Notes: generated from the sequence alone by a model not told the origin. DNA of 42,490 nt from Candidatus Zixiibacteriota bacterium (GCA_029932605.1 JAOZPT010000003.1:1-42490), one strand, 5' to 3'; counted from the first letter of the stretch, positions 6,161 to 27,006 are shown. Numbers and translations are program-made.

Positions 6161-6198
6161 ATATATTGGTGTTTGGATTTATATGATGGAGTAATTTT

Positions 6199-6702: not shown

Positions 6703-6750
6703 GGTTGATTACAAGTCTGGGTCGTATTTGTTGATAAAGTAACAGATAAC

Positions 6751-8274: not shown

Positions 8275-8301
8275 AAGAATAAAAGCTACCGGAGATTTAA
8301 A

Positions 8302-8823: not shown

Positions 8824-8992
8824 ATCCAACATTTATACTTTAACAAACCCAAATATCTTATAACCATCAAAAACTATTGACTTTGTGTATGTATATGGAT
8901 TATTTTTGTAAAGTGAGAAAGTAAAGGTATGAAAACATGGCCCGTAATGTTGCCTTCAAGTTATTTTCAATTGCAACAGGGAGTGATGACTA

Positions 8993-9490
8993 TTGAGCAG
9001 TGATAAACAGGCACAAACTGTAAAAAAGCACAAGTTAAATTTCGCTTTCCGCGAAAAATTAGGCACCTTTGCCGAAGGTTTCAGACATAATTATTGTTAC
9101 CAGTGTGGGGCTTGTGTGGCTGACTGTCCGGCAAGCAACTATTCTAAGGAATTCAATCCACGTCTTATCATTCTCAAAGCTCTTCTTGGTTTCGAGGATG
9201 AGCTTATCAAACCCGATTCGGAGATATGGAACTGCACCAACTGCTATACCTGCTCGGAAAGATGTCCGCAGGATGTTCGACCTGTCGATGTCATCATTGC
9301 CCTGAAAAACATGTGTTATAGTGAGGGCAAGGCGCCGGAACTAATAGGCCACATTTCCGATACTGTCCTAGTAACCGGCGTCACTACCAAAATTACCTCA
9401 CTGTCTGAAAGACGCCGGCAGGAGCTTGGACTTCCCCCTATTAAAGGTTATCCGGTTGATGAAATCAAAAAGATTATCGAGGCTGATTGA
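8993..9490 (+). CDS. hdrC: Heterodisulfide reductase subunit C (2x[4Fe-4S])
   Basis: 'CYQCGACVADCP' and 'WNCTNCYTCSERCPQDV'. TTG start with a GGGAG SD. Directly upstream of HdrB. Confidence 0.88.
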   Translation: MSSDKQAQTVKKHKLNFAFREKLGTFAEGFRHNYCYQCGACVADCPASNYSKEFNPRLIILKALLGFEDELIKPDSEIWNCTNCYTCSERCPQDVRPVDVIIALKNMCYSEGKAPELIGHISDTVLVTGVTTKITSLSERRRQELGLPPIKGYPVDEIKKIIEAD

Positions 9491-9491
9491 T

Positions 9492-10382
9492 ATGACTTAT
9501 AAATCCATTGGAAAATATATTCCATTTTTTGGTTGTATGATGACCACCAAGTATCCATGGTTCGAGGCGGCTGTGCGTAAGACGGCAGCAAAAATCGGTA
9601 TGGAATTAATTGACATCGATGGTTTCACCTGCTGTCCTGACCCAATCTATTACCAGGCGCGCGACAAGATGGAATGGTACACAATCGCCGCCAGAAATAT
9701 ATCGCTGGCGGAAGACCTTGGTTATGATTTAATTACAACCTGTTCCGGTTGCACTGCTACCTTATCCGAGGTCAATTTAGCCTTAAAAGAAGACCCTGAG
9801 CTTAAAGCAAAAGTCAATGAACGCTTAAAGAAAATTGGCCGTGAGTTCAAAGGCTCGATAAATGTCCGCCATGCTGTTACGGTCATACGTGATGACTTCG
9901 GTTTCGAGCAGGTAACCAAGACTGTTACCCGTCCGCTGGAGGGGCTGAAAGTGGCTGTTCACTATGGTTGTCACCTTTTGAAACCGTCGCGGGTGATGCG
10001 TGTCGATGACCCCAACCACCCAACAATACTTGAAAACCTCCTCAAAGCCATCGGTGCCGAGCCAATCCATCATGATAAGACCATGTTATGCTGTGGCAAA
10101 GCCTGTATATCTGATGCTATACCGGAACAAATGATAATGGATATACTGGAAACGATAAAAAGCAGAGAAGCTGACTGTATGGGACTCATCTGCCCGACAT
10201 GTTTTGACCAATTCGATATAAGACAGATCATTCTGGGACGAAAACATAAAAAGAAACTCGATGTGCCAATCATCTATTATTTTCAGCTACTTGGGCTGGC
10301 ACAGGGGCTCAACACCAAAGATGTCGGCCTGCAAATGCATAAAGTAAAAGCCGACCAGATATTCGAAAAAGTATTAGCGTAA
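9492..10382 (+). CDS. hdrB: Heterodisulfide reductase subunit B (CCG domains)
   Basis: 'FFGC', 'TCCPDP', 'CSGC', 'HYGCH', 'CCGKA', 'CPTC', 'PIIYYFQLLGLA'. Likely start is the ATG at 9492, 1 nt after the hdrC stop, rather than 9426. Confidence 0.9.
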   Translation: MTYKSIGKYIPFFGCMMTTKYPWFEAAVRKTAAKIGMELIDIDGFTCCPDPIYYQARDKMEWYTIAARNISLAEDLGYDLITTCSGCTATLSEVNLALKEDPELKAKVNERLKKIGREFKGSINVRHAVTVIRDDFGFEQVTKTVTRPLEGLKVAVHYGCHLLKPSRVMRVDDPNHPTILENLLKAIGAEPIHHDKTMLCCGKACISDAIPEQMIMDILETIKSREADCMGLICPTCFDQFDIRQIILGRKHKKKLDVPIIYYFQLLGLAQGLNTKDVGLQMHKVKADQIFEKVLA

Positions 10383-10385
10383 ATT

Positions 10386-10412
10386 GTAGGTCAAAGCCCC
10401 TGCGGTTTTGAC
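10386..10412. repeat. GTAG-preceded palindrome (REP-like / possible bidirectional terminator) between converging hdrB and adh
   Basis: GTAG + GTCAAAGCC-CCTGC-GGTTTTGAC, a 9-bp stem with one G-U pair. Confidence 0.45.
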
Positions 10413-10426
10413 TGGAAGCTATAAAT

Positions 10427-11431: not shown

Positions 11432-11529
11432 TTTTACCCAGCCTGGTTAATTTAACAGTTATCAGTATCTAACCGTACTCATATAGTTAATTATAATATC
11501 ATGATCTATTTATAAATTCAACAGAATTG

Positions 11530-11556
11530 ATAGGTTGGGTTCCGAGGAAACCCGAC
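11530..11556. repeat. REP-like hairpin / probable terminator downstream of the ECF S-component gene
   Basis: ATAG + GTTGGGTT-CCGAGGA-AACCCGAC, an 8-bp stem with one G-U pair, about 10 nt past the stop at 11566. Confidence 0.45.
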
Positions 11557-11565
11557 AACCTTCAC

Positions 11566-12126
11566 TTAATTCTTGGGATTCTCTTGGTCTTTCTTTACCC
11601 ACCAATTGGCGATAATCGGCAGGAGTATGATCTGTCCCAGCGCCGCAAACAGACCGGGCAACAGTGCCGCCTTAAAATATTGCATATAATTACCGCTTGC
11701 GGCAAAACCCAAGTAAACGGTCAGAGCAAATGCAACTCTTCCGATTATGAGGGCAGGAATAACCGACATGAATGGATTGAAGAGAAGCTTTTCACGCAAG
11801 AAGCCGGCGACGAAACCATAGGTAAACAGTTCGACCGTCATGGCGGGCAGAATTGCAGGTAAGGGCATGCCGGATATAAGGTAACTTAATGATGGAGAGA
11901 GCAACCCCACCAGCGCACCGCTTCTCCAACCGAAGACCAAGCCTGCCAGGATAACAGGCCAGTGCATAGGTAGAAGAATTCTTACCGGAGCGCCTGATAA
12001 GTGAGCCACAGCGGGCAACATAACAGCGACTCCAATAAGGATTACTTGGAAAACCAAAGATTTTGTTCCCCAGAACACCAAAGTGATGTTTTTTACTGAT
12101 ATGGAAGGCTGATTTTTGTTATACAT
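11566..12126 (-). CDS. ECF transporter S component (substrate unknown)
   Basis: 186 aa with about 6 hydrophobic segments. 'LLPMHWPVILAGLVFGWRSGALVGLLSP' and 'GMP...PAMTVEL' are typical of ECF S components. Confidence 0.8.
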   Translation of the reverse strand: MYNKNQPSISVKNITLVFWGTKSLVFQVILIGVAVMLPAVAHLSGAPVRILLPMHWPVILAGLVFGWRSGALVGLLSPSLSYLISGMPLPAILPAMTVELFTYGFVAGFLREKLLFNPFMSVIPALIIGRVAFALTVYLGFAASGNYMQYFKAALLPGLFAALGQIILLPIIANWWVKKDQENPKN

Positions 12127-12345
12127 TTTTGTATCTTCCTTGATGGTATTCTTTAAAATGGCTCAACAACAGATCCTTTGCAAATTAAAAGGATTTTTTA
12201 ATCGCTTAGTACAATATATTAGTCTTTATTTAGTTACGTCAAGTGTTTTCAATATAAAAAAAATGATGTAAATTTAATTGTTAAAATTGTATCAGTTGAA
12301 ACTTAAAATTTTTACAGGTATATCCAGAGGAAAAAAGATACACCC

Positions 12346-12585
12346 GTGAAACCATTAAGACTTGACAGTAAAAATGTAGGTTATGTGAAGTTAGCCCCTG
12401 AGGCTGGACAGAAAAGGTTAGAATATCTGGCAAGGTTTTGTTATAGTTTCAATCAAGATGGCAGTATTTCTTTAGAATGGGATGGGCGTGATCATAAAGG
12501 TGAAGATGTGAGCAGTGGGGTATACTTTATATCATTACAAGCACAGAATGGAGGTGATGTCAAGAAGGTAATCTTATTGAGGTAG
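12346..12585 (+). pseudogene. Orphan C-terminal sorting (T9SS-A/FlgD-Ig-like) domain fragment
   Basis: The C-terminal half 'LEWDGRDHKGEDVSSGVYFISLQAQNGGDVKKVILLR' parallels the C-termini of 29205-32129 and 32513-34327. The N-terminal NxPNPFN motif and any passenger domain or signal peptide are missing. Confidence 0.55.
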
Positions 12586-12758
12586 AGTACTATTTTAAAC
12601 CTTAAACTACTTCCCTACCGGTTTAGCAGGGGGGAGACGGCGGACACTATTGGAACGGCATTTGGGGCAGGTTCTTTCAGTGATATTATCCGGGTCATAC
12701 ATACCTTTATATTCATGTCCACATTTGAGGCATTTAAAGGTAGTTTCTCTTGCAGGCA

Positions 12759-15230
12759 TCAGGCTTTCACCTCTTCATTTTTTAAAGCTTTTTTCTTTTT
12801 GCTCTTGGCCTCTTCCTCGGTTAAGACTTTCATTGTATGCTCGATCTCTTCTTTAGTAACGGCTTTGACCATATCTTCCAGTTCGCGCATGACCTTGGCG
12901 AATTTCTGGCCCTCGGCGGCGGATATCCATTCAAGCTGCAACCTTTCGGGACGGATACCCAGTTTTTCAAGTTTGTTCCACATACGGTCCATTCGTTTCT
13001 GTGTCCACTGCACAGCGCTGATGTAATGGCAATCGCTGAAATGACATCCGGATACAAGCACCATTGGCGCACCCAACTTGAAAGCATGCATTACGAATTT
13101 CTCGTCGACTCTGCCGGAGCACATTGTCCTTATCAGTCTGCATGTGGGAGGATACTGCAATCTTGAGGTTCCAGCCATATCACCACCGGCATAACTGCAC
13201 CAGTTGCAGGCGAATGTCACAAGATGTTTGTGAGGCTCTACGGCCAGCAGAGCTTCGATTTGGGCCATAATCTGCTCATCGCGGAAATGCCGCATGGTGA
13301 TAGCATCCTGTTGACACTCCGAGGCGCAGGCACCACATCCGGCGCAGGCAGCCTGGATGACAATAGGTGCTTTCTTGGCTTTCCGATCAGGGGCTATGAT
13401 AGCATTATATGGACAGACCCGCGCACAGACACCACAATAGTTACATTTGTCAGGATCGATCTGAGAGGTGATAGCCTCGACCCTGGTTTTGCCGGCGTTG
13501 AGTAGAATGCTGGCTCTGGCCGCTGCAGCACCTGCCTGGGTGACGCTGTCTTTGATATCTTTGGGCGATTCTACACATCCAGCTATGAAAATACCTTTAG
13601 TAGGAGCATCAACCGGCTTAAGCTTGGGGTGAGACTCCATAACAAAACCATCAGAGGTTGTTGATAATGTCAGAAGCCTTTTGATAGTCTCACCATCGCG
13701 ACGAGGTATAACCCCTTGTGACAGAACTAGCATCTCAAGCTCATGTTTTTCCAACTTGCCAGTGGTCGTGTTTTCAACAGTTAAGATAAGGTTCTTGGTT
13801 TGAGGATCTTCTGTGACCTCACCCGGGATACCCCTTATATATTTAACACCCTCTTCCTTACTTCGCATATAAAGATCTTCGAAACCTTTACCAAAGGCAC
13901 GGATATCCATGTAGAAAACCTCAGCCTGAACTCCAGGGTAATGGTCGCACAGCAGAAGAGTATCTTTAACGGTGTTCATACAGCAGATGTTACTGCAATA
14001 TGGGTTACCACGGCCATCCCGCGAGCGGGAACCAACACATTGTATAAAGCCGATGCTCTGGGGAATCTTACGGTCAGTTGGTCGAATGAAATGCCCCTCG
14101 GTTGGGCCTCCAGCGCAGATTAACCGCTCAAACTCCATACTGGTGATAACGTTCTCGAAACGAGTGTAGCCATATTCATCGTATTCCGTAGGATCATATA
14201 CATCCATACCGGTAGCAACGATTACCACACCTACCTCGACGTTCACCAGTTTATCCTGGTCATCGTAGTTGATACATTTTTTCTCGCACGCCTCAAAGCA
14301 TTTGCCACAAGCAATAGGATTGTTGCCGAGGCAGTTTTCCATATTCAGTATATAAGATGACGGTACTGCTTGAGGAAAGGGTAAATATATAGCCTTACGT
14401 GAGGAGAATCCTTGTTGGTATTCGTCAGGCACCGTTACCGGGCAGACTTTGGCGCATTCGTCACAACTGGTGCACTCGTTGGGATCTACATAGCGAGCCT
14501 TCTTGCGTATTGCCACGTTGAAATTGCCCACGTAACCGGTAACTGATTCGACCTCGCTGTAGGTCATTAACTCGATATTTGGATGTCGACCGACATCCAT
14601 CATTTTGGGACCGAGTATTCATATGGAACAATCCATTGTCGGGTAGGTTTTGTCGATTGCAGCCATAATCCCACCGATTGTGGGTTCTTTCTCGACCAGA
14701 TAGACTTTGTGCCCACCGTCTGCTAAATCGAGGGCTGCCTGGATACCTGAGATGCCTCCGCCGATAACCAGTGCTGCCTTGGTAACCGGTACTTCCGCTT
14801 CCTGTTGTGGTTCCAAAAAACGAGCCCTGGCAACGCCACTTCTAACAAGGTCTTTGGCCTTCTCGGTAGCTGCTTCCTTTTCAGTTTGATGAACCCAGCT
14901 ACAGTGCTCACGAATATTTACCATTTCGAACAGATACGGGTTTAATCCTGCATCAGCTACACATTCACGGAATGTCGGCTCGTGGATTTTTGGAGTGCAG
15001 GAGGCTACCACAACACGATTGAGGTTATGTTCGGTTATAGCCTTTTTAATCTCATTTTGTCCAGGGTCAGCGCATGTATACTTATTCTGGACGACAACCA
15101 CAACATCATCCAGTGTCTCAGCGTATTTACTGACAGCAGTACAATCAATGGTGCCGGCGATATTCAGTCCGCACTCACAGACGAACACACCAATGCGCAA
15201 ATCCCCAGGTTTTTTTAATTCAACTGCCAT
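12759..15230 (-). CDS. hdrA: Selenocysteine-containing HdrA fused to C-terminal MvhD (about 823 aa)
   Basis: ORFs 14619-15251 and 12759-14603 are in frame across TGA 14619-14621: ...[27 protein letters not shown]... Contains the HdrA N-domain '[10 protein letters not shown]', FAD motif 'GGGISG', a ferredoxin insert, 'CVGSR...CSNICC', a C-terminal ferredoxin, then MvhD '[12 protein letters not shown]...MCSGRV...GCHFSDCHY'. Likely start is the ATG at 15230 (GGGAG SD). Confidence 0.9.
14570..14618 (-). promoter_or_regulatory. Bacterial SECIS-like hairpin 3' of UGA in hdrA-mvhD
   Basis: mRNA after UGA: upper stem UGGAUGUC-[GGUC]-GACAUCCA (8 bp) with the loop starting 27 nt after UGA. Lower stem ACUCGGU/AUCGAGU. 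Confidence 0.8.
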
Positions 15231-15314
15231 ATCTTTTCTCCCAGCCGTCAAGAACTTTTATTCTTGTCTTAGGCAGGTAGGTTGTCAAAATGTTACTCAT
15301 CTTTATCCAAAGCC

Positions 15315-16457
15315 TCAACCAGTTAAGGCTGAAGCAACTAAGTTCACGAAATCGGTTAATTTTATACCGACTTTTTCTGTTTCCTCTCCACATTCAGCAC
15401 ACCGAAAATGAATCTGGCATTTCGGGCAGGCGGTTACTAATGTATTTGCACCTGTATCCTTAGCCTCAATCAGCCTGCTGTTTTGAATCTGCTTGGAGGT
15501 AGTATCGCAGTTCATCCAGTTGGTGGTGCCACAACATATTGCGCCTTGCTTGTTGTGAGGCATCTCGAGGAACTTTATCCCCGGAATAGACAACATCGCC
15601 TCACGTGGTTGCTGGTAAATACCCATGTGTCTGCCCAAACGGCAAGGGTCCTGGAAAGTAACTTCCATATCAATGGTATTGAATTTTAATTTGCCGATGT
15701 TTTCGGCAACAACCTCGGCGATATGTTTAACCTTGAAGTTTACACTACCAAATCGTTCAGGATAGAGCTTTTTTAATACAAGAGCGCATTCCGGGCAAGC
15801 TGTCACTACAGTTTTGGCGCCAGTTTGCTCTATCTCCTTTAAATTTATTTGCCCAAGCTCATCAAACTGTCTTAACTGACCCAGCCAGTAAAGGTCATGG
15901 CCACAACATCGCTCGTTGTCCATGACCACTGGTTCGATACCGAGATAATTTAGAATTTTCACCGTATCCTGGGCAATTGAAATTGGTGAAAAATCGAAAT
16001 CCTTGGCAAAATAGTTTTCGTAATATGGTAAACATCCAACAAAATAAAGAACTTCACCTTTGGTTTTAACCTTTAGGTTGTCGTTTATCCAGCCAGTACG
16101 GCTTTGTTTGAGATTAGGTGAAGAGAGCATATCCATGATGTAGTGAAAGGTACCGCCATGTGATGGGTTACCCCATTTCCCCTGGCTGTATGCCTCAGCC
16201 CGAATATCCCGCATATATTCGGAATACCTGACATCCACAGGACAACGCTGTGAACACAGCTGACAGGTTAAGCAGGACCATAAGAGATTGTCGGAGATAA
16301 GTTCATTGCCGCCATAGAAAAGACCCTCGGCTACCATCCGTCGGGGGGAATAGCTGTTATTGAAGCGAGAAATGGGACATACACTGGTGCATTTTCCACA
16401 TTCAAGGCAGTAAAAGGCGCTGCTTTTCTTTATTTTTTCAGCAACATTTTTCATCAT
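15315..16457 (-). CDS. HdrD-like (Fe-S)-binding protein: 2x[4Fe-4S] plus two CCG domains
   Basis: 'CLECGKCTSVCP', 'CLTCQLCSQRCP', 'FVGC', 'CCGHD', 'ACPEC', 'QDPCRLGR', 'CCGTT', 'ACPKC'. Confidence 0.85.
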   Translation of the reverse strand: MMKNVAEKIKKSSAFYCLECGKCTSVCPISRFNNSYSPRRMVAEGLFYGGNELISDNLLWSCLTCQLCSQRCPVDVRYSEYMRDIRAEAYSQGKWGNPSHGGTFHYIMDMLSSPNLKQSRTGWINDNLKVKTKGEVLYFVGCLPYYENYFAKDFDFSPISIAQDTVKILNYLGIEPVVMDNERCCGHDLYWLGQLRQFDELGQINLKEIEQTGAKTVVTACPECALVLKKLYPERFGSVNFKVKHIAEVVAENIGKLKFNTIDMEVTFQDPCRLGRHMGIYQQPREAMLSIPGIKFLEMPHNKQGAICCGTTNWMNCDTTSKQIQNSRLIEAKDTGANTLVTACPKCQIHFRCAECGEETEKVGIKLTDFVNLVASALTG

Positions 16458-16921
16458 TTATTAAATTTTGGTTTATGATTTAATGGGCTTGGTCCCAGAG
16501 CGGTTATCTGTTCGGTAAATTCGTTAATGACCTGAGCCCAACGTGGTCCCTCTGCCGCTGAAATCCATTCCAGGCGTATGCGTTTCTCATCCAACCCCAA
16601 AGTCTTCACTAACTCTTTAGTTTTTTCAAATTGGTCTACAGCCTTATAGTTGCCAAATATATAATGGCAATCACCAAAATGACAGCCTGAAACGAGAACA
16701 CCATCTGCCCCAAGTTTCAGGGCTTTAAGTATAAAAGCGGGAGTGACCCGACCAGAACACATGGTTCGAATAATTCTAAAATTGGGCGAATGTTGAATCC
16801 TGTTTACACCAGCGGTGTCAGCACCTGCATAACTGCACCAGTTGCAGGCAAAAGCGACAATATTGGGCACGAATTTTTTATTCGTTGATTTCTTTTTAGT
16901 CTTTGGTTTTTTCACAGGCAT
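16454..16921 (-). CDS. mvhD: MvhD-type [2Fe-2S] subunit
   Basis: '[12 protein letters not shown]', 'MCSGRV', '[17 protein letters not shown]', '[10 protein letters not shown]'. Overlaps the next gene by 4 nt. Confidence 0.9.
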   Translation of the reverse strand: MPVKKPKTKKKSTNKKFVPNIVAFACNWCSYAGADTAGVNRIQHSPNFRIIRTMCSGRVTPAFILKALKLGADGVLVSGCHFGDCHYIFGNYKAVDQFEKTKELVKTLGLDEKRIRLEWISAAEGPRWAQVINEFTEQITALGPSPLNHKPKFNK

Positions 16922-16924
16922 ATA

Positions 16925-19900
16925 TTAAGTCTCATCGGTTAATAAAGCTTCCATCATGGAATCGATCTGCTTGTCGGTGAAATGCTGTGCTTCGATTGCC
17001 CCGGTCGGGCACCAACTGGCACAGGTGCCACATCCTTTACATAAAGCCTGATTTATCTCAGCAACTTTTAGTCCGGGCACGATCTCAATCAATGATGGTG
17101 CATGGTATTCACAAATTTCCACACATCGGCCGCAGGCACGGCATAAATCCTGCTGAACAACACACGTAATCGGTTCGAGCATCACGGTATCGCGGGCAAT
17201 AAATGACGCTACCTTGGCGGCCGCGGCAGAACCCTGGGCAATGGAATCAGAGATATCCTTGGGCCCACTCACGCAACCAGCCAGGAACACTCCCTCGGTG
17301 GTCGTCTCAACCGGACCGAGTTTGGCGTGACGCTCCATGAAAAAGCCGTCGGCGCCTATAGGCAATTTTAAGATTTCATGAAGTTTGTCAGTGCTTTCCT
17401 TATTGGGCACCATTCCTGCCGCAAGCACTATATAATCAACATCTATTTCCAGAACGCGGTTTAGAGCAAGCTCTAAGATATCGACCGCTTCAGCCTGATT
17501 AGCGTTGCCGATTACCCTGGGCAATCTCTCAGATGTATACCTTATGAACCTCACTCCCAGAGCTCTTGCGTGGCGGTAATGCTCCTCGGCTTTAGCCCCA
17601 ACTGTGCGCATATCGCGATGCAGAACAGCTACATTCACACCATTCTCTCGCAGACGGACAGCCTGTTTGATGGTCGTTGGGCAGCAAAAACGCGAGCATC
17701 CGGGATTCTTTTCGGGATTACGAGAACCAACACACTGGATGAAAACGACGGTTTTCGGCGTCTTACCTTTTATTTTTAATGAACCTTTAGTATCATGTAG
17801 AATATTTTCAAGTTCCTGGTTGGTTATAACGTTTTCATATTGACCATAGCCGAATTCACCATTGGGTTTATATATATCAGCACCAGTCGCCACCACTATG
17901 GTTCCTACTTTGAAGTTGCCGTATGAGGTGGAAACATCGAAATTACCAACAAAGCCGGTTATGGAATTTATTTGGGTAGAAGGCATTACCTCAACTCGGC
18001 TAGCTCTAAGTTTTTCCACCATGGTCCGGGCAAGCTCAACCGCTAAAAGGTCAGCGGGATAAACTCTGGTCAAGTTATTTAAGTATCCGCCGAGACGGCC
18101 TTCCTTTTCTATAAGGTAAACCTTGAAACCCTGAGCTTCAAGATCTAAGGCGGCGCGCATACCAGCTACACCCCCACCAATGATAAGCACACTCTGGTTG
18201 ATTGGAATAGATTGTTTATGTAAGGGTTGCAAATGACGAGCCCTGGCTACCCCCATTCTTATGAGATCCTTAGCCTTCTGGGTAGCTATTTCCGGTGTAT
18301 CGGTATGCACCCATGAACACTGGTCACGCACATTGACTATTTCAAAGAGATAGGGGTTAAGGCCAACCTGTTCACAACTTTCACGGAAAATAGGTTCATG
18401 TGTGCGGGGAGTGCAGGCGGCTGCAACAATACGGTTGAGCTTTTTCTTGATGATCGTATCTTGCAAACACTTCTGACCATCGTTTGAACAGAGAAAAAGA
18501 CTTTCTTGGACAAAAACAACACCGGGTAGTCTCTCAGCGTATTTCTTCAAAGCGGCAACATCTAGAACTCCGGCGATGTTGATACCACAGTGGCAAATGA
18601 AAACGCCGATTCGTGGAGGGCCGTTGATGTCTAAAGGTGGGATTTCCTCTTTAACTTCTTCAATTCTAACTTTGGCAACATATTTTTCTGCCTCAGCCGC
18701 TGCCCCTGAGCCTTGGGCTACTGAATCAGAAATATCATTAACTCCAGCAGCACAACCACAAATATATATACCCTCTCTGGGGGTATGTAATGGTGAACCA
18801 TATTTCGCATCTGTTTTTAAGAACCCATTTTCATCAAGGTCAATGCCGAGAACCTCAGCAAGTTTTTTGTTCGATTTTGACGCTATTGCACCGGTTGACA
18901 ATACGGCCATATCGAATTTGATTCCGCCTATCTTCCCGGTTTCAACATCCTCAACATATACGGTCAAATCTTTTGTTTTGGGATCCTCAACTATCTTAGA
19001 CGGTCGCCCTCTGATATATTTCAACTCCGGGACTTCAAGCGAACGCTGGTAAAATTCCTCGAATCCCTTGCCTGCTGCACGCATATCGATATAGAAAACT
19101 GCCATCTCTTCAATTTCGGATTCGTGCTGTTTTACAAGCATACAGTCTTTGACCGCATTCATACAGCAGAATCGTGAGCAATACTGACAGCCAGCCTCTT
19201 TTCCCTCGCCTCTCGAACCAACACATTGAATAAAAGCAATTTTTTTGGGCACTTTTCGATCGGATGGCCTGATTATATGTCCCCTGGTCGGTCCCGATGC
19301 GTTTAACATCCTTTCCAGCTCCATATTAGTTAAGACATTATCATAAAGGCCATAACCATAACTGGAAATAGCGGTGGCGTCATAAACATCAAATCCGGTT
19401 GCTACAATGACTGAGCCTATATCAAGGTTAATCTCCTCACCAGGGTCATCGAAATTGATTGCGTTGCGGTCACAGCTATTAACGCAATTGTTACAAACAA
19501 GAAACTCACCATTAAGGCAGTTTTCCCTGTCTATGATATGGGTGTAGGGCACCGCCTGGGCAAAGGGTGAATAAATGGCTTTGCGTGCTCCCATTCCAAC
19601 CTCGAAGTCATTGGGTACTACAACCGGGCAATCCTCAACACACTGGCCACAGCCGGTGCATAACTCTTCACTTACGTAACGAGGATGTCGTTTGATTGTG
19701 GCCCGGAAGTTGCCTGCCTTACCCTCAAAATAGGTTAGCTCGGAATGGGTCATGATCTCAATATTGGGATGCCGACCGGCATCTAACATCCGTGGTCCCA
19801 GAATTCATATAGAGCAGTCCATAGTGGGGAAGGTCTTGTCAAGTTGAGCCATCCTTCCCCCAAGCGAGGGTAATTTCTCAACCAGATATACCTTCACCCG

Positions 19901-19990
19901 TGATGAGGCCAGATCTAAAGCAGCTTGAATACCGGTGATACCCCCACCTATTACTAAAACCCCTTTTTCTCTTTTTACCTGTTGGGGCAT
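16925..19990 (-). CDS. hdrA: Selenocysteine-containing tandem (double-module) HdrA, about 1021 aa
   Basis: ORFs 19805-19990 and 16925-19789 are in frame across TGA 19805-19807: ...[27 protein letters not shown]... Two FAD motifs (GGGITG, GGGVAG), two 'CVGSR...CSRFCC' motifs, an internal '[10 protein letters not shown]' domain, one ferredoxin insert and one C-terminal ferredoxin. Confidence 0.9.
19764..19804 (-). promoter_or_regulatory. Bacterial SECIS-like hairpin 3' of UGA in tandem hdrA
   Basis: Upper stem GAUGCC-[GGUC]-GGCAUC with the loop starting 27 nt after UGA. Possible lower pairing UGGG/CCCA. Confidence 0.75.
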
Positions 19991-20035
19991 AATGTAATCC
20001 TCAACGAACGATATAATGCAAAACTATCCTATAAT

Positions 20036-20599
20036 CTATGCTGTGGCCTTGACTTTTTTCTTTACCTGGAGGCCGTATTCATATCCCTTATCGAAAGCTT
20101 TAAGATTTAACTCTTGAGTTCCAGGCGGGACAGAGGTTTCAACACCCTGGCGCAGTGCCTCTTTTGGTATCAACCCGGTGACGGCGCCGAAAAATCCCAA
20201 CATGACGATATTTAAAACGATCTTGCGTCCAAGTTCTTCAGCGAAACGTGTAGCCGGTATGCCGTAAGTTTTAACCTTGGGTCCATGTTTTTCCAGTGTG
20301 ACAAGGTCATTATCGTAAACAATTATACAATCATCAGCGATGTTATCTTTATGTGTTTTATAACCGTCCCTGGACAAAGCCACCAATATTTGGGGAGAAG
20401 TAACATAGGGATATAATACTCTGTCGTCTGAAACTACTACCTGAGCACTGCAGGCGCTCCCCCGTGCCTCCGGCCCGAAACTCTGTGTAAGTGTAGCATT
20501 CTGGTTATTATATATGGAGGCAGCTTTGCCTATAATGTAACCGCAGAGAATAATTCCCTGCCCTCCGAATCCGGTAATTCTAATCTCTGTTGTGGCCAT
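20036..20599 (-). CDS. korC: 2-oxoacid:ferredoxin oxidoreductase gamma subunit
   Basis: 'EIRITGFGGQGIILCG', 'QSFGPEARGSACSAQVVVS', 'NIVMLG'. ATG at 20599 with a GGAGG SD. Confidence 0.88.
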   Translation of the reverse strand: MATTEIRITGFGGQGIILCGYIIGKAASIYNNQNATLTQSFGPEARGSACSAQVVVSDDRVLYPYVTSPQILVALSRDGYKTHKDNIADDCIIVYDNDLVTLEKHGPKVKTYGIPATRFAEELGRKIVLNIVMLGFFGAVTGLIPKEALRQGVETSVPPGTQELNLKAFDKGYEYGLQVKKKVKATA

Positions 20600-21467
20600 T
20601 ACCGCCTCCGTATATTTTGTATTTATCGCCAAAAACTTCTTTGTTTCTATTATTCAGGCAATCTAAAAAAGTTGGCTTTTCAATATCCACAAATTTACCC
20701 ACCGTGATTTTCGACTGATATTCGATATCGATATCCTTTGGGTCTGCACCATGTTTGATAATACTGTTATCATGATAAAATTTCATCAGGTCGAGGCCAT
20801 CACCAAGTTTGTTAAGGCGGGCATATAGAGTTGAACAGGGAGCGATAACCTCGACAAATGAAAAACCTCTCTTACTGATAGCTTCTTTGAAAGCGGTGGT
20901 CAGACGCCGGATATGCAGAGCTGTCCAGCGAGCCACATATACCGCTCCCGAGGATGCTGCCAGAAGAGGAAGATTAAAAGGATGTTCATAATTACCGTAG
21001 GGTGAGGTCGATGACTTGGCAGTAAGTGGTGTGGTTGGAGCAACCTGGCCACCAGTCATGGCATAGATGAAGTTATTGACGCAGATGACGGTGATATCGA
21101 CGTTGCGCCTGGCGGTGTGGATGAAATGGTTACCGCCAATGGAGATTAAATCCCCGTCTCCGGAGAAGACTATGACCTTCATATCCGGACGGGCAACATG
21201 TAAACCAAAAGCAAATGGAATTGCCCGACCATGAGTTGTGTGGAACGAGTCAAGCTTCATATATCCGGCCACGCGTCCAGTACAACCAATCCCTGAAACC
21301 ACAGCTACGTTATCTAAGTCTAACTCCAGCTGTTCAAGGGCAACTGCTAGGGCTGTCACTGTGGTTCCAATTCCGCAGGTGGGGCACCATATATGCGGAA
21401 TGCGGTCCATCCGGAGAAGTTTCTCCATCGGATGTTCCTGTTTTTGTTGAGCTACTTCAGTAATCAT
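20580..21467 (-). CDS. korB: 2-oxoacid:ferredoxin oxidoreductase beta (TPP-binding) subunit
   Basis: 'HIWCPTCG', 'SGIGCTGR', 'HTTHGRA', 'SGDGD...IGGNH', 'NNFIYAMTGGQVAPTTP'. Confidence 0.92.
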   Translation of the reverse strand: MITEVAQQKQEHPMEKLLRMDRIPHIWCPTCGIGTTVTALAVALEQLELDLDNVAVVSGIGCTGRVAGYMKLDSFHTTHGRAIPFAFGLHVARPDMKVIVFSGDGDLISIGGNHFIHTARRNVDITVICVNNFIYAMTGGQVAPTTPLTAKSSTSPYGNYEHPFNLPLLAASSGAVYVARWTALHIRRLTTAFKEAISKRGFSFVEVIAPCSTLYARLNKLGDGLDLMKFYHDNSIIKHGADPKDIDIEYQSKITVGKFVDIEKPTFLDCLNNRNKEVFGDKYKIYGGGNGHNRD

Positions 21468-22621
21468 TTGACAGCTTCCTTTATAGTTTTGTACACATCT
21501 TCCGGGTTATGGACGGTTCCACCGGCATGACCGACAAAGTAAGTCTGGCATTTTCCTGCAACACAGCGATCCATTTCTAGAAATACCTGACCATAGTTCA
21601 TCTCCACCATAATCAATGCCTTCACCTTATCCGCCAGCTCCTTAACCCGTTTCTCGGGAAAAGGCCAAACGGTAACCATCTTTATCATCCCTATTTTTAT
21701 GCCATCTTTCTTGGCTTTGGCAATAGCCGGCTGAACCACTCGGGAGGTTATACCATAAGCCATTACTACAATTTCAGCACCTTCAACATCCTTTTCCTCA
21801 AGCCATACTATATCATCAACGTTCTTTGTAACTTTGTCAATCAACCGGCGAACATTCCATTCTTGAGCTTCGTCATTTATAATAGGATAGCCTCTTTGGT
21901 CGTGAGTCAAACCGGTGACATGGAATTTATAACCTTTACCGACAGGTAGGAGTGGAGATAACAGGTTTTTCGTATCTTCGTACGGCCAGGCCTCGCCAGG
22001 CTTCTTGTCAGTATAGTTGCGTTCAACTAGTTCGATCTCCTCGGCCGGAGGGATGATTACTTTTTCGGTCATATGCCCGACACATTCATCGGTCATTACA
22101 AGCACTGGCATCCGGTATTTTTCGGAGAGGTTGAATGCATGTATAACCAACTCAAACGATTCCTGTGGTGAATCAGGCGCAAGAGCAATTACTTCGTAAT
22201 CGCCATGTGAACCCCAACGGGCTTGCATCATGTCAGCCTGGCCAGGGAGAGTGGGCAGGCCGGTTGATGGACCACCGCGCTGGACATTTACAAGCACACA
22301 TGGCGTCTCCAACATTATCCCCAATCCGAAATTCTCCATCATCAAGGAAAATCCAGGACCTGAAGTGCAGGTCATAGATTTTACACCACCCCACGCAGCC
22401 CCCAGTATCGCCCCCATACTTGCCAGTTCATCTTCCATCTGCACAAAAACGCCCCCAACAAGAGGAAACCTTCGTGAAACCCTCTCGGCGATCTCGGTAG
22501 ATGGCGTAATTGGGTAACCACCGAAAAATTTACATCCGGCGGCAATGGCACCCTCGGCACAAGCATGATTACCATCAAGATAATGAGAGCCGACAAGAAC
22601 ATTCTTTGGATCAGCTTTCAA
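21464..22621 (-). CDS. korA: 2-oxoacid:ferredoxin oxidoreductase alpha subunit
   Basis: 'GYPITPSTE', 'QMEDELAS', 'TSGPGFSLMME', 'QRGGPSTGLPT', 'QARWGSHGDY'. Likely TTG start at 22621, overlapping the korD TGA, with an AGGAGG SD. Confidence 0.92.
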   Translation of the reverse strand: MKADPKNVLVGSHYLDGNHACAEGAIAAGCKFFGGYPITPSTEIAERVSRRFPLVGGVFVQMEDELASMGAILGAAWGGVKSMTCTSGPGFSLMMENFGLGIMLETPCVLVNVQRGGPSTGLPTLPGQADMMQARWGSHGDYEVIALAPDSPQESFELVIHAFNLSEKYRMPVLVMTDECVGHMTEKVIIPPAEEIELVERNYTDKKPGEAWPYEDTKNLLSPLLPVGKGYKFHVTGLTHDQRGYPIINDEAQEWNVRRLIDKVTKNVDDIVWLEEKDVEGAEIVVMAYGITSRVVQPAIAKAKKDGIKIGMIKMVTVWPFPEKRVKELADKVKALIMVEMNYGQVFLEMDRCVAGKCQTYFVGHAGGTVHNPEDVYKTIKEAVK

Positions 22622-22899
22622 CTGGTTACCTCCTTTTCTACATCCTCCGCTCGTAAACAATAAATGGCAAAATCAGGGCAAAGCATCTCACAGAGATCAC
22701 AATTAACACACTCGTCAGGCTTAACTGCCACAGGAGGGTGATAACCTTTGCTATTGAACTCATCAGAGAGCTTAAGAACCCCTTTAGGGCAATACTCCAC
22801 ACAAAAACCGCACCCTTTACAACGCTCCTTAATTATATGGAGTTCACCTCTGGGAATTTTTATCTTGTCAATATCTAATGGGGTTCTCCAATATTTCAT
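22618..22899 (-). CDS. korD: 2-oxoacid:ferredoxin oxidoreductase delta subunit (2x[4Fe-4S] ferredoxin)
   Basis: 'CKGCGFCVEYCP' and 'CVNCDLCEMLCPDFAI'. ATG at 22899 with a GGAG SD. Confidence 0.88.
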   Translation of the reverse strand: MKYWRTPLDIDKIKIPRGELHIIKERCKGCGFCVEYCPKGVLKLSDEFNSKGYHPPVAVKPDECVNCDLCEMLCPDFAIYCLRAEDVEKEVTS

Positions 22900-22978: not shown

Positions 22979-23370
22979 AAACACAAAAAATTCCCTTAGT
23001 AAGTATTATTGAATATGATTTTAAGAAATTCCCTCGAAGATCGATTAAGTAACTTTTCTATCACTTTATTAAAATCAAGAACTATTCCCTTAACCAGATT
23101 AACGTCCCAAAACACATTACCAACCAAACCTAAAGAATTTAATATATTCAAACATAAATGTCCAACAAAATTTGAAAAAATATTAAAGCCTGATATATAA
23201 TGTCCATACACAAAACCTTCTTAGTATATGCTACTTATGCACATAACAACATCTTGTTGTTTAACTCGGGCTATTGCTACTTTTTCTTTATTGCGTGCAA
23301 TTAGCAACGGTTGTATATTCTAAAGAGGAGATGGTTTACGGTCACAAAATTTTAATTGATATTTAAGAGA

Positions 23371-23940
23371 ATGGCTTTCCGGTACACTATAAGATTGTGC
23401 GGCGCTGGTGGTCAGGGGCTGATCCAGGCAGCACGGATATTAGCTGAAGCGGCAGCTATTTACGACAATAAAAACGCTGCCGAGAGTTGCTCCTATGGCC
23501 CCGAGGCTCGGGGAAATGCCAGTCGGGCTGAGGTGATTATTTCTGATGAAGCAATTGATTATCCGAAAGCCAAGGCTATTGATTTCTTAATGGCTATGAC
23601 ACAGGAAGCTTACGACAAATATATCAAGGACTTAAAGCCAGATGGTATTATTGTTGCAGATTCTTGTATTAAAAACCTTGGTAAAAGTAAAGAATATCGG
23701 GTTTTCTCAGTGCCATTCCTGGATATTGCTGAAAAAGAATGCGGCAACCTGTCGATGATAAATATAGTAGCCCTTGGGTTTTTCGCCGAGATCAATAGGG
23801 TTGTTGGGAAAAAATCTATACGGCAGGCGATTCTTGCACGGATTCCCAAGAAATCCGAGGATATTTATATAAAAGCGTATGAAGCTGGTTTAAGGATAGC
23901 CTCTCAACAACTTGATGAAAAAGGGGAAAAAAGAGGGTAA
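23371..23940 (+). CDS. Stand-alone second 2-oxoacid:acceptor oxidoreductase gamma-subunit paralog
   Basis: 'IRLCGAGGQGLIQAARILAEAA', 'SYGPEARGNASRAEVIIS', 'NIVALG'. Likely ATG at 23371. Confidence 0.85.
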   Translation: MAFRYTIRLCGAGGQGLIQAARILAEAAAIYDNKNAAESCSYGPEARGNASRAEVIISDEAIDYPKAKAIDFLMAMTQEAYDKYIKDLKPDGIIVADSCIKNLGKSKEYRVFSVPFLDIAEKECGNLSMINIVALGFFAEINRVVGKKSIRQAILARIPKKSEDIYIKAYEAGLRIASQQLDEKGEKRG

Positions 23941-24051
23941 TATACACGTAATCGACTATGAAAACAGAAACCATAGTTTACACAATAAAGTTTATATCGA
24001 TTAGATTTATTCGGAATTCTTTTTTATCTCGTTAACGGTGGATCGTATTGC

Positions 24052-27006
24052 ATGAAAGATCAATTGACACGTTTAACCGAGAGAACCGCCGCCTTAGGTA
24101 ACTACAACCGTAAGTATCTTTATATCATATCATCCAATATAGACAAATTAACCGCCGCCCTTGAGCAACACGGTAAACGTGATATGGTACATTTATGGAG
24201 TTATTCAACGGAGATACCCGGTGAGATGGATACGGTGCTGGAGGTCTCTACTGATACTCACGAGAGATTAGATTTCCTTGGTTGCTATTACGCTATCCAG
24301 TTTTTACAAATAAACTTGCACATGGTGGATATCGTCAAGTTGGAGCTTGCTTCAAGTTCGGAACGCTGGCGAACCGGTAAGAGGTTGATGCTTGAGGCTG
24401 GCCGGATGTTTCGAAATCTAACCAAATGCTATATGGAACGTTTGTTAGATATATTCCTTGATAAAAAAAATGCACCGGAATTTGTTATATTGGGAGTTGG
24501 CACGCGGGCTGACCAGGATGATATCGATTTGGGAATTGTTTATCGTGAACCTGGAGATTCCGACGCCCTTAACCGTGCCATCGGACGGCTTTCAAGCGAA
24601 ATGTTTAAGAAGGCAACACGCTTACATTTCCATCTTTCTGAACATGTTGGCCATCATAACCTTGCTGCCACCATTGAAGAATATGAGGAAATTTTGGAAA
24701 AAGGTATATACGATTTTGTCATAATCACCGAAATGCTTGGAGCAGCTACGATTCTCGGAAGTAGTTCCCTTTTTGAGGAGTTTAAAAATAGAGTGACAAA
24801 CTGTTTTTATTATAATACACGAAATAAGGAGAATCGTTACCATGAGGGTTATCTACGCGGTATACTTGGTGAAATCCATTCTCTTTTGACCCAAATGAAA
24901 CCGCCGGAGACGATAAATCCCAAAGATGATGCACTTCGGCCAATAAAAAGCCTGCTCTCAGCACTCAAACTTGTTTATGGTATTCATAAGGTAAATGCCT
25001 GGAATATAATAGATGACCTCAAGGTAAAAAATCCGCAGAGGGAACAGCAATATAACAATCTCGAACAGGCTCTCAGCTTCTTCGAATTGTTTCGGCACCT
25101 CTATCAGATAATGGTTGCCCAGGATGAAGACATTAGTTTGAACGAGCCGGGAATTGAGGACATGGTATCTACCATTGCCGAGATGATCGGTTTTGAGAAA
25201 AAAGGTGTGGTGACAGCTAAGGATTTCATGCTGGTGAACTATTACGAATTCCTTGAGAGAAGTATCCATGATATCGAGGTATTAACAGGTGATTTGAAGA
25301 AGCATCTTCATGAGGTCAGTATATTCAAACCGATTTATTCCGGGGATATCTATAAGTCGGTTGGTTATAAAGGGAATCTGGCGTTTGATTTTATACGGGC
25401 ATCGAGGTTTTTCAAAGGGACGACCTACTGGGATGATTTCCTAGAGAAATTAAGTGGAGAAAATGGTACTTTTTACAATGAGTTTATATCAAGTTTTAAT
25501 AAACTGTCTGTTAAGATGCGCCGTATTATCGGCCTAGGCTATGTTGCTGGAATCAAATACGAAATGACATCTGTCTTGCGATTTCTGGTTATCCTTGGGG
25601 AAAAAGCCAAGACCGATGAAGCCAAAGATACGTTTAACCTTCTCAGCCGGTTGCTCGTCGAGCAAATGGTCAAACTCCCGGGCATTTCAACCTCTCTGGC
25701 ACAAATAGTTTACGCTTATCCGGGGTTACTTAACAGCTTTTTAACACTTATTGATTGGGAAACTCTTGATAAATTTATGAAGATTGCCCGCATAAAACCA
25801 GCTATGCCGGAGCTTATCTCATTTCATAATCAACTCTTGGCACTGGGAAACATACATTACCAGAGCAGCCAGTTTTTTAAACGGCATTTCCGACCGGTTT
25901 TGAAAAAGAACCCCGCTTTCATCAAAAACCTTCATAACAATGATAAGCTTAAAGAAATTGCAGCCGGTCTTTACAGCGACCTGACTACTCTGCCCTCGTT
26001 GCGTCAACGTATCGAACAACTCGGTGATTATTACGACCTTGAATTTGTACGGGTAAGTTTATTGGCTATGAAGGGAGCTCCATGTGAGCTTACCGACGCT
26101 GAATTTACTGAATTTTGTGATAATTACACTAATACCTTGTATGGTTTCTGCCATCAGGATGTTCACCTTTCGTTGGGGTATTCCATGCACACACACGACC
26201 TTTTTGCCCTTTACGCCACCGGTGGCCATGCCCGTGAACAGGGTTTCGACGACGACTATGATATGATCGTCATCCTCGATTCATCTGATCCGGATGAAAT
26301 CGATTATTGCAACAAAATAGTGGGCAAGATGAATTCCGAGATACTTAAAAGAGGGATACTCCCTCATCACAGGTTCGCTGACCATTTCGGTAGTTACGTT
26401 GTGAGCTTTGCCCAGCTGAGTGATCATCTGGGCAGTCAGGACGAGGAGATTTTCATTGACCAATCCCAGATATTGAGTTCGAGAATGCTTGTGGGAAGCA
26501 GTAAGCTTGAGCAGAAACTCCAGCAGGAAATAATAAGCCCACACATCTTTTCACGTGGTCGGGAATATATCGACTATATGGTAGAGGAGATGCGATCACG
26601 CCATACCGAGACAGGTGGTGAACATTGCAACGACATTAAAGAGTGTTGCGGTGGTTTGCGCGATATTGAGATGTTGCTTTTAATGTATAAGGCAAAACAT
26701 AGAGTTCGCGATCCACTGTCGAGAAAATTCCTTCACCGGCTGGCCGAATTGGAGCCACGATATGCTGAGGAATTCAGGTATATAGAGAAACATTTAAACT
26801 TCATAAAAAACCTGCGCGACATTTATCGACTCAAAGTAGCCGCTCATAACGTCATCAATCGTGAGTACTTACCCTCGGTAGCCGCCAGTATGGGATATGG
26901 CGATGATGATAAAGCTGGAGAAAGTTTATATAACCACTTTTTAACTAATACCGAAAAAGCATGGAAAATTATCAATCAGCTGGTTGAGAATATAAAAATA
27001 AAGTAG
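24052..27006 (+). CDS. Tandem Pol-beta-type nucleotidyltransferase, GlnE/GlnD/DUF294-like
   Basis: 984 aa. Module 1: 'VILGVGTRADQDDIDLGIV' plus 'INPKDDALRPI'. Module 2: 'LYATGGHAREQGFDDDYDMIVIL' plus 'DIKECCGGLRDIE'. No HD or ACT domains recognised. Confidence 0.65.
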   Translation: MKDQLTRLTERTAALGNYNRKYLYIISSNIDKLTAALEQHGKRDMVHLWSYSTEIPGEMDTVLEVSTDTHERLDFLGCYYAIQFLQINLHMVDIVKLELASSSERWRTGKRLMLEAGRMFRNLTKCYMERLLDIFLDKKNAPEFVILGVGTRADQDDIDLGIVYREPGDSDALNRAIGRLSSEMFKKATRLHFHLSEHVGHHNLAATIEEYEEILEKGIYDFVIITEMLGAATILGSSSLFEEFKNRVTNCFYYNTRNKENRYHEGYLRGILGEIHSLLTQMKPPETINPKDDALRPIKSLLSALKLVYGIHKVNAWNIIDDLKVKNPQREQQYNNLEQALSFFELFRHLYQIMVAQDEDISLNEPGIEDMVSTIAEMIGFEKKGVVTAKDFMLVNYYEFLERSIHDIEVLTGDLKKHLHEVSIFKPIYSGDIYKSVGYKGNLAFDFIRASRFFKGTTYWDDFLEKLSGENGTFYNEFISSFNKLSVKMRRIIGLGYVAGIKYEMTSVLRFLVILGEKAKTDEAKDTFNLLSRLLVEQMVKLPGISTSLAQIVYAYPGLLNSFLTLIDWETLDKFMKIARIKPAMPELISFHNQLLALGNIHYQSSQFFKRHFRPVLKKNPAFIKNLHNNDKLKEIAAGLYSDLTTLPSLRQRIEQLGDYYDLEFVRVSLLAMKGAPCELTDAEFTEFCDNYTNTLYGFCHQDVHLSLGYSMHTHDLFALYATGGHAREQGFDDDYDMIVILDSSDPDEIDYCNKIVGKMNSEILKRGILPHHRFADHFGSYVVSFAQLSDHLGSQDEEIFIDQSQILSSRMLVGSSKLEQKLQQEIISPHIFSRGREYIDYMVEEMRSRHTETGGEHCNDIKECCGGLRDIEMLLLMYKAKHRVRDPLSRKFLHRLAELEPRYAEEFRYIEKHLNFIKNLRDIYRLKVAAHNVINREYLPSVAASMGYGDDDKAGESLYNHFLTNTEKAWKIINQLVENIKIK

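Follow-up and report, generated by a model that had tools for sequence, protein, structure and literature searches.

What supplies the electrons to an HdrA/MvhD module when none of the usual donors is encoded with it? This question is raised by a 42,490-nucleotide stretch of DNA from Candidatus Zixiibacteriota bacterium (GCA_029932605.1, JAOZPT010000003.1:1-42490), which we call the window. A putative operon on its minus strand, from position 12,759 to 22,899, encodes a four-subunit 2-oxoacid:ferredoxin oxidoreductase (KorDABC), a tandem HdrA, MvhD, an HdrD-like protein, and a fusion of HdrA with MvhD (HdrA2). HdrA/MvhD modules are the best-understood devices for flavin-based electron bifurcation, and to our knowledge, every characterized one takes its electrons from a mid-potential donor: H2, formate, F420H2, or NADH. 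The module that we describe here depends on selenium and is conserved in uncultured sediment anaerobes with about nine phylum-level labels, and the only partner that it encodes is a 2-oxoacid:ferredoxin oxidoreductase (OFOR). We propose that its proteins form a soluble iron-sulfur flavoenzyme complex in which Kor is wired to the HdrA modules and runs in the oxidative direction, with Kor as the input and disulfides as the acceptors. We put the probability of this reading at roughly 0.4.

Conservation and origin of the linkage

To survey the locus, we compared a profile of 12 tandem-HdrA homologs to a collection of species genomes and considered the best 80 of over 620 related stretches. In 20 of these 80 loci, korDABC is directly upstream of the tandem hdrA, with the same gene order as in the window. 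No kor is present in 57 loci, and the other 3 are from close relatives whose contig ends before the position of kor. Downstream of the tandem hdrA, the order mvhD-hdrD is kept in all 20 Kor-type loci, and hdrA2 is also present in 16. Three of the four loci without hdrA2 are cut off by the end of the contig; the fourth is L015, which has a Caldithrix label. By the labels assigned in binning, loci among these 20 fall into about nine phylum-level groups: Planctomycetota (5), Acidobacteriota, Gemmatimonadota, Calditrichota, Armatimonadota, Ignavibacteria, Pseudomonadota, "Deltaproteobacteria", and one Thermoplasmata archaeon.

Within the Zixibacteria, 27 of the 151 sampled genomes contain a full-length ortholog of the tandem HdrA at 50% identity or above (29 if we count two fragmented ones). 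Among the Zixibacteria loci that we fetched, kor is beside the tandem hdrA in 20/20 and is colinear with it in 18. In L097 and L098 (from genomes G069 and G150), korDABC-hdrA2 is divergent from hdrC-hdrB-hdrA(tandem)-mvhD-hdrD, and the parts stay together. An earlier reading of the window, made from the sequence alone (the sequence-only reading), had proposed conserved linkage of kor, hdrA, mvhD, and hdrD as a check on the idea of a shared complex, and the linkage held up both across phyla and within the Zixibacteria.

We then built a tree of the HdrA proteins with FastTree (75 rows, after exclusion of six loci in which under 850 residues were aligned; the Kor-type locus L050 was one of them). 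The Kor-linked HdrAs, which are the protein from the window and 19 others, form a single clade with a support of 100, together with two rows whose contigs are cut short. All 53 of the unlinked rows lie outside this clade. Because the Kor-linked proteins form one clade, the linkage of Kor with Hdr appears to have arisen once, by one change of state. Among the 21 loci that we compared, gene families from outside of the module are each shared by 5 loci at most. We read the module as a self-contained unit that has moved between phyla.

Tandem HdrAs outside of the Kor clade adjoin other genes: a [NiFe] hydrogenase (L044); an FrhB-like gene (L054); HdrB-like and MetV/MetF genes (L078); or genes for formyl-tetrahydrofolate ligase, carbon monoxide dehydrogenase, and a GltD-like protein (L066). 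These differing neighbors suggest that the HdrA/MvhD core takes exchangeable partner modules. As judged by gene position, Kor is the partner module in this clade: it stands where donor genes such as mvhAG or frhB-like genes stand in related clusters.

Genes of the module

All eight genes that the sequence-only reading had assigned to the operon (korD-korA-korB-korC-hdrA(tandem)-mvhD-hdrD-like-hdrA/mvhD) are present on the minus strand (Table 1), with no gap above 84 nt. korA and korB overlap by 4 nt, as do mvhD and hdrD; korC is 45 nt from the tandem hdrA, which is 3 nt from mvhD; and the largest gap is between hdrD and hdrA2 (63–84 nt). That parts list was incomplete, however, as it overlooked three genes of the same conserved module: a small zinc-ribbon gene (znr), hdrC, and hdrB.

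By tblastn, an ortholog of znr immediately follows hdrA2 in 14 of the 80 loci and in 14 of the 20 Zixibacteria loci, and we found no match to znr at the rearranged loci L097 and L098. The motif layout of Znr fits the FmdB-type zinc ribbons, and its scores are just under the cut-offs of models for this type (30.0 instead of 34.4 for Zn_ribbon_8, PF09723, and 26.9 instead of 31.3 for TIGR02605). In the window, the hdrC/hdrB pair is on the opposite strand and converges on the operon, about 2.4 kb from hdrA2. Orthologs of this pair are directly after hdrA2-znr in 11 Kor-type loci, and they are upstream, on the same strand, in two more. Because orthologs of znr and of hdrCB follow hdrA2 in these relatives, we consider the full module to be korDABC, hdrA(tandem), mvhD, hdrD, hdrA2, znr, hdrC, and hdrB.

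Some Zixibacteria have other genes within the module. At L100, the inserted genes encode two DinB-family proteins, an IS200-type transposase, and part of a permease (6599-9126). L107 has a HicAB pair and a PNPOx-like flavoprotein (10113-10564 and 12356-12787). The PNPOx-like flavoprotein lies between hdrD and hdrA2 both in L107 and in L103 (5555-5986), and these loci are from a divergent group of Zixibacteria.

Table 1. Genes of the Kor-Hdr module in the window, with the adjacent orphan OFOR gamma gene. Scores are in bits, with the cut-off of the model after the inequality sign.
Gene	Position	Strand	Description
korD	22618..22899	-	Delta subunit, two [4Fe-4S] motifs; Pfam Fer4 families; NF042987 76.5 < 125
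korA	21464..22660, likely start near 22621	-	Alpha subunit; POR_N and PFOR_II; NF006412 554.6 > 411
korB	20580..21467	-	Beta subunit, binds thiamine pyrophosphate; PF02775 (TPP_enzyme_C); NF007207 233 < 364
korC	20036..20632	-	Gamma subunit; PF01558; NF006323 207.5 < 235
hdrA (tandem)	16925..19990	-	1021 amino acids, TGA readthrough at 19805-19807; NF040770 1111 > 1100
mvhD	16454..16921	-	Stand-alone [2Fe-2S] adaptor; PF02662 (FlpD) 177
hdrD-like (HdrC+HdrB fusion)	15315..16457	-	380 amino acids; Pfam Fer4_8 and CCG x2
hdrA2 (HdrA2-type HdrA-MvhD fusion)	12759..15251	-	830 amino acids, TGA at 14619-14621; NF040770 1186.8 > 1100
znr (zinc ribbon)	12607..12759	-	50 amino acids, CxxC...CxxC; ATG overlaps the hdrA2 stop by one base
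hdrC2	8993..9490	+	HdrC-like, two [4Fe-4S] motifs; Fer4_8; TIGR03290 100.6 < 160
hdrB2	9426..10382	+	HdrB-like, CCG x2; TIGR03288 297 < 345, model positions 2-290/290
orphan OFOR gamma gene	23356..23940	+	PF01558; divergent from korD; possible accessory part

The HdrA and HdrD proteins

The sequence-only reading had counted three HdrA flavin modules and two MvhD units, and the sequence bears out both counts, with an FAD-binding GGGxxG motif in each of the flavin modules. HdrA2 carries the full set of HdrA features: the GGGxxG motif, the cluster motif CVGSR..C..CC, the selenocysteine (Sec) motif, the inserted ferredoxin domain, and the N- and C-terminal iron-sulfur domains. We aligned both halves of the tandem HdrA with HdrA2. 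Both modules have the FAD site and the CVGSR..CC cluster. The Sec motif and the inserted ferredoxin domain, with its two clusters, are confined to module 1, and the N-terminal domain and the C-terminal ferredoxin domain occur in module 2 only. Since every accessory domain is present once, split between the two modules, the tandem HdrA looks like a covalent and asymmetric version of the HdrA homodimer of methanogens. The nearest solved chains are from methanogen enzymes (8RVV, 8RVU, and 5ODC), and by analogy to these, we infer that the tandem protein is equivalent to a dimer of the solved HdrA.

The HdrA-MvhD fusion matches NF040770 over model positions 1–777, and its FlpD domain is at residues 678–797. 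In the sequence of the HdrD-like protein, we read two copies of CxxCxxCxxxCP and two complete CCG motifs. The top match of this protein in NCBIfam is to TfrB (NF004898), at 159 bits, which is below the cut-off of 385.

Both of the HdrA genes contain an in-frame TGA within the motif TMDCSI-U-ILGP. About 23 nt 3' of each TGA, there is a GC-rich hairpin with a GGUC loop (the hairpin after the TGA of hdrA2 has a z-score of −2.09). A GGUC-loop hairpin after UGA is typical of bacterial selenocysteine insertion sequence elements. Also, the genome encodes tRNA-Sec. Across the Kor-linked loci, the Sec position of the motif is nearly always TGA; the exceptions are TGC codons in L026 and in L021 (at the tandem site only), and one site, in L020, escaped our search pattern. 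The relatives without kor mostly have a cysteine codon at this position.

Kor is an additional paralog

According to Pfam and NCBIfam, the Kor proteins of the operon make up a four-subunit OFOR of the OorDABC/KorDABC type, with the genes in D-A-B-C order. The best solved relatives of KorA are 1YD7 and 8YS5. There are four OFORs in the genome: PorCDAB, an enzyme of the VorB type, the housekeeping korDABC that immediately follows sucCD (on contig C28), and the Hdr-linked korDABC. KorA and KorB of the housekeeping enzyme are 44% identical to the Hdr-linked pair. From this comparison, the Hdr-linked Kor is an extra paralog beside the housekeeping sucCD-korDABC, and it appears to be dedicated to the module.

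The small KorD subunit has distinctive features of its own. In an alignment of the operon's KorD with 17 orthologs and the housekeeping KorD, the N-terminal sequence MKYWRxPLD is conserved among the orthologs, and there is an EFNxKGYHPP insert; the housekeeping KorD has neither. Because this N-terminus is conserved in the 17 orthologs, we placed the start of korD at 22899.

The search for an electron donor

The sequence-only reading had noted that the window has no hydrogenase, formate dehydrogenase, or Flx gene, and our domain search of the window's open reading frames agrees. The search likewise detected neither an NAD(P)H-binding subunit nor a fumarate-reductase flavoprotein in the window, and no AOR-family or Complex1_51K (NuoF-type) domains were found among its open reading frames of 90 amino acids or more. 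More broadly, none of the 40 Kor-type loci that we examined encodes a mid-potential donor module.

We then searched the whole genome, which is 2.53 Mb and 99.96% complete. As the sequence-only reading would predict, the search yielded neither mvhAG nor a subunit of the FrhB/FdhB type nor a third MvhD/FlxD. The search for [NiFe] hydrogenases (PF00374) gave just two sub-threshold, NuoD-like matches at 20.8 bits, and none in the window. PF04432, for FrhB/FdhB, had no match in the genome (our control matched in 4 genomes), and neither did PF01996, for the F420 ligase (the control matched in 3 archaea). The only two matches to MvhD/FlpD (PF02662) are those in the operon. We did not find a homolog of RnfD/NqrB in the genome. 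PF16114, for ATP-citrate lyase, had no match in the genome, and the control also matched in no genome, so this result carries no weight for or against a reductive tricarboxylic acid cycle.

The genome does encode other redox enzymes away from the module. A co-directional cluster on contig C45 (L001, C45:30001-49000, 6146-14570) encodes an [FeFe]-hydrogenase-like protein with a C-terminal iron-sulfur domain, NuoE, NuoF, a molybdopterin-dependent FdhA-like protein that is fused to NuoG and has no Sec, and NfnA/NfnB-like proteins, all cytoplasmic. The formate dehydrogenases in the genome are this NuoG-fused FdhA-like protein and a selenoprotein FdnGH with a twin-arginine translocation signal, on contig C85. 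Contig C59 (L003, 4033-11945) encodes glutamate dehydrogenase, a NuoE-like protein, a NuoF-GltD fusion of 1063 amino acids, a 2Fe-2S/4Fe-4S protein, and a protein with a glutamate-synthase domain.

The direction of electron flow

In the reading that we favor, the dedicated OorDABC-type Kor would oxidize 2-oxoglutarate (a 2-oxoacid) and would pass the electrons directly to the HdrA flavin modules. The two clusters of KorD and the [2Fe-2S] adaptor of MvhD would be the electron wire, instead of free ferredoxin. By analogy to the MvhG-MvhD and FdhB-MvhD contacts, Kor probably docks onto the Hdr parts by way of KorD and MvhD. The HdrA modules would then deliver the electrons to two Hdr-type thiol/disulfide sites, HdrD and HdrB2C2, so that the net reaction would be 2-oxoglutarate + CoA + disulfide -> succinyl-CoA + CO2 + 2 thiols. 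Optionally, free ferredoxin could be reduced at the inserted ferredoxin domain of HdrA. This reaction seems the most economical because the module has no hydrogenase, formate dehydrogenase, FrhB, Flx, or GltD-type input, and the first four of these inputs were not found elsewhere in the genome (other than the enzymes on C45 and C85 described above). We chose the oxidative direction because everything that it needs is encoded in the module and because HdrA2B2C2 is reported to reduce a heterodisulfide with reduced ferredoxin (PMC5296606). We infer the direction of flow from these considerations, and likewise the kind of disulfide: the candidates are the module's four-cysteine mini-protein or a low-molecular-weight thiol. 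As to the thiol, DinB-family genes, which occur in the window and, in one relative, within the module itself, are no more than a hint.

Several findings weigh against this reading. We presume that Kor is specific for 2-oxoglutarate, and yet it scores below the cut-offs of the 2-oxoglutarate-specific models in NCBIfam (385 instead of 579 for NF007206, and similarly for NF007207 and NF042987; Table 1). The paralog next to sucCD scores slightly higher on such models, and the best solved match of the operon's Kor, 1YD7, is a generic 2-keto acid enzyme. Furthermore, bifurcation is superfluous for a donor at about −500 mV, so a simple 2-oxoglutarate:disulfide reductase would leave the three flavin modules and the two disulfide sites unexplained. 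The sequence points to no particular thiol/disulfide substrate, and DsrC was not found in the genome. Given the NuoEF/FdhA-like/[FeFe]-hydrogenase-like/NfnAB cluster on C45, a donor might also act in trans. Our case for co-transcription comes from the gene spacing: a scan for promoter consensus sequences found 30 promoter-like sites, as compared to a mean of 29.9 in shuffled sequences, which is the level expected by chance (as are the 18 terminator-like sites, with 14.1 in shuffles). The parts are not always adjacent, either: in L015, a search of the 8 kb downstream turned up neither hdrA2 nor znr nor hdrCB. Finally, the phylum labels of the Kor-type loci come from the binning of metagenome-assembled genomes and may be in error.

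The same complex might instead run in the reductive direction, which we consider possible but doubtful. A mid-potential donor would be bifurcated at the HdrA flavin, with the low-potential electron going directly to Kor (for carboxylation of succinyl-CoA to 2-oxoglutarate) and the high-potential electron going to a disulfide at HdrD/HdrBC. Given the established redox potentials, bifurcation is energetically sensible only if Kor is the uphill acceptor. The presence of a second Kor paralog beside the TCA-type sucCD-kor (of the tricarboxylic acid cycle) fits a specialized and possibly biosynthetic role, and the GlnD-like gene that is divergently upstream, along with an orphan OFOR gamma gene in five related loci, hints at a nitrogen/2-oxoglutarate context. 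A scheme of this kind was proposed for the Flx-Hdr-Kor-Tfr clusters of tubeworm symbionts (PMC6315080), and a later report describes co-expression across the symbiont cluster, including the intergenic regions (PMC11636981). The difficulty is the donor, as there is no module for one in the 40 Kor-type loci and we found no [NiFe] hydrogenase, FrhB/FdhB, third MvhD, or F420 ligase in the genome. The electrons could enter from a soluble hydride carrier at the flavin of HdrA2, or by way of an MvhD to which a donor encoded elsewhere docks, for example from the NuoEF/FdhA-like/[FeFe]-like cluster on C45. Entry at module 2 of the tandem HdrA seems less plausible: it retains the HdrA-type CVGSR..CC motif, and hence we recognize no NAD(P)H site in it.

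It is also conceivable, but unlikely, that the proteins do not form a physical complex and that the operon simply co-regulates enzymes that share free ferredoxin. Kor would reduce the ferredoxin, and enzymes of the HdrA2B2C2 type and the HdrA/MvhD/HdrD type would re-oxidize it at the expense of a cellular disulfide, as a sink for ferredoxin or as a supply for thiol redox. HdrA2B2C2 uses free ferredoxin in vitro (PMC5296606), the cell needs other outlets for ferredoxin if it lacks Rnf (no RnfD/NqrB was found), and in L097 and L098, kor and the tandem hdrA are in two divergent operons. On the other hand, loci with about nine different phylum-level labels share one gene order, the linkage arose once on the HdrA tree, and the genes overlap tightly. 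Also, the linked KorD has its own N-terminal motif and insert, which are not found in the housekeeping KorD. Three other OFORs already make reduced ferredoxin, so a dedicated Kor paralog would be unnecessary for mere ferredoxin supply.

More speculatively, the module could represent a type of flavin-based enzyme not seen before, which bifurcates or confurcates electrons without H2, formate, NAD(P)H, or F420, although we would give this long odds. The low-potential arm would be 2-oxoglutarate/succinyl-CoA, and there would be two thiol/disulfide couples, at HdrD and at HdrB2C2, one of which might be the four-cysteine mini-protein in the role of a carrier like DsrC. The unit of tandem HdrA, MvhD, and HdrD would replace the NAD(P)H-binding Flx unit, and the whole enzyme could be mobile between phyla.

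If Kor does dock directly, then this would be the second case, after the methanogen Hdr-Fmd, of an Hdr low-potential arm that is wired to a CO2-handling enzyme. It would bear on how anaerobes with no detected Rnf or [NiFe] hydrogenase balance their ferredoxin and thiol pools, and on how they drive reductive carboxylation. The module offers a concrete set of about eleven genes to work with, and the cysteine variants in L026 and L021 would bypass selenocysteine insertion for expression and for cryo-electron microscopy.

Other genes in the window

On the plus strand, positions 1066-8823 encode a 3-hydroxy-3-methylglutaryl-CoA (HMG-CoA) synthase-like protein, a thiolase, a DUF35/ChsH2-type OB-fold protein, a carboxyltransferase, an enoyl-CoA hydratase, a DinB-family protein, a biotin carboxylase, and a biotin carboxyl carrier protein. 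This string of genes stops 170 nt before hdrC2, and it looks like a leucine/HMG-CoA or mevalonate-entry cluster. We considered whether the operon's Kor might be a branched-chain 2-oxoacid enzyme that serves these HMG-CoA/methylcrotonyl-CoA-type genes, and we rejected this idea as the main reading: the neighborhood is not conserved with the module, and a VorB type is encoded elsewhere in the genome.

Divergent from korD, on the plus strand (23356-27006), are the orphan OFOR gamma gene and a gene for a 984-amino-acid protein with a GlnD-type nucleotidyltransferase segment. The GlnD-like protein is found beside the module at 65–69% identity in five Zixibacteria-like loci and at 33% identity in L014. 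The closer orthologs of the orphan gamma protein (56–69% identity) are encoded beside the module, on the opposite strand, in L006, L089, L090, L093, and L096.

About 480 nt downstream of the operon, also on the minus strand (10427-12126), are a zinc-dependent alcohol dehydrogenase (adh_fam_2, 349.5 bits, above the cut-off of 283.5) and the S component of an energy-coupling factor transporter. Farther away (29205-34327), a subtilase of 974 amino acids (minus strand) and a protein of 604 amino acids (plus strand) have type IX secretion C-terminal sorting domains.

Comparison with known systems

In the Hdr supercomplexes of methanogens, electrons of the low-potential arm pass directly to an enzyme that reduces CO2. 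Like MvhADG-HdrABC and Fdh/Vhu-Hdr-Fmd(Fwd) (PDB 5ODC, 7BKB, 8RVU, and 9SFI), the module has HdrA with FAD, the Cys/Sec motif, the inserted and C-terminal ferredoxin domains, and the MvhD adaptor. In contrast, the donor in those complexes is [NiFe] hydrogenase or FdhAB, neither of which we found here. Also, the HdrA of methanogens is a homodimer, whereas here a single polypeptide has two complementary, half-degenerate modules.

Class II benzoyl-CoA reductase from Geobacter metallireducens (BamBCDEFGHI) has a similar core: BamDEF comprises an HdrA-like selenoprotein with two FADs, an MvhD-like protein, and an HdrD-like protein, on a low-potential catalytic module. The partner of BamDEF is the tungsten enzyme BamBC, with the NuoEFG-like BamGHI. 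As judged by the domains in its open reading frames of 90 amino acids or more, the window has no BamB or BamGHI-type genes, so we rejected a BamE-type benzoyl-CoA reductase.

HdrA2 and the hdrC/hdrB pair resemble HdrA2B2C2 of Methanosarcina acetivorans, in which HdrA is fused to MvhD and paired with HdrC and HdrB, and whose ferredoxin:heterodisulfide oxidoreductase activity is proven (Yan, Wang & Ferry 2017, PMC5296606). As described there, the archaeal enzyme stands alone, acts on the heterodisulfide of coenzymes M and B (CoM-S-S-CoB), and bifurcates from F420H2. In contrast, the HdrA2 in the window carries Sec and travels with Kor and the tandem HdrA, in a genome in which no F420 ligase was found.

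Tandem and MvhD-fused HdrAs have been catalogued in archaeal genomes; the catalog gives no analysis of partners, in the part relevant here (PMC11237513). These proteins are similar in that two HdrA domains are in one polypeptide, often with MvhD nearby, but the Kor-linked HdrA clade is mostly bacterial and contains Sec. Other Hdr contexts are described for Desulfococcus multivorans (PMC5109826), Desulfobacterium autotrophicum (PMC2702500), and the Cloacimonadota (PMC12590816).

The closest precedent is in tubeworm symbionts, where korABCD is interspersed with hdr genes, FlxABCD, and TfrAB, and where a direct Kor-Hdr complex that bypasses free ferredoxin was proposed (Rubin-Blum et al. 2019, PMC6315080). 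The tfrAB-hdrCB-korDABC-hdrA-flxDCBA cluster, which is linked to the reductive tricarboxylic acid cycle, is reported from these symbionts and from Thioflavicoccus mobilis (PMC6315080; Mitchell et al. 2024, PMC11636981). As in the window, the genes for the four Kor subunits (korDABC) sit among hdrA, mvhD-type, and hdrB/C genes. The clusters differ in that the symbionts are described as having FlxABCD for NADH input, the fumarate reductase TfrAB, and a single HdrA, whereas the operon has no Flx and no TfrA, and has instead a tandem HdrA, a separate MvhD, the HdrD fusion, the HdrA-MvhD fusion, znr, and a second HdrCB. In the literature that we searched, which excluded the review of HdrA contexts by Appel et al. 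2021 (in BBA, Biochimica et Biophysica Acta), we found no description of kor with tandem hdrA, mvhD, hdrD, and hdrA2. The suggestion in the sequence-only reading that the complex might be undescribed is therefore too broad, since the interspersion of kor with hdr genes and the idea of a complex were published in 2019, but it stands for the form without a donor, which we did not find in print.

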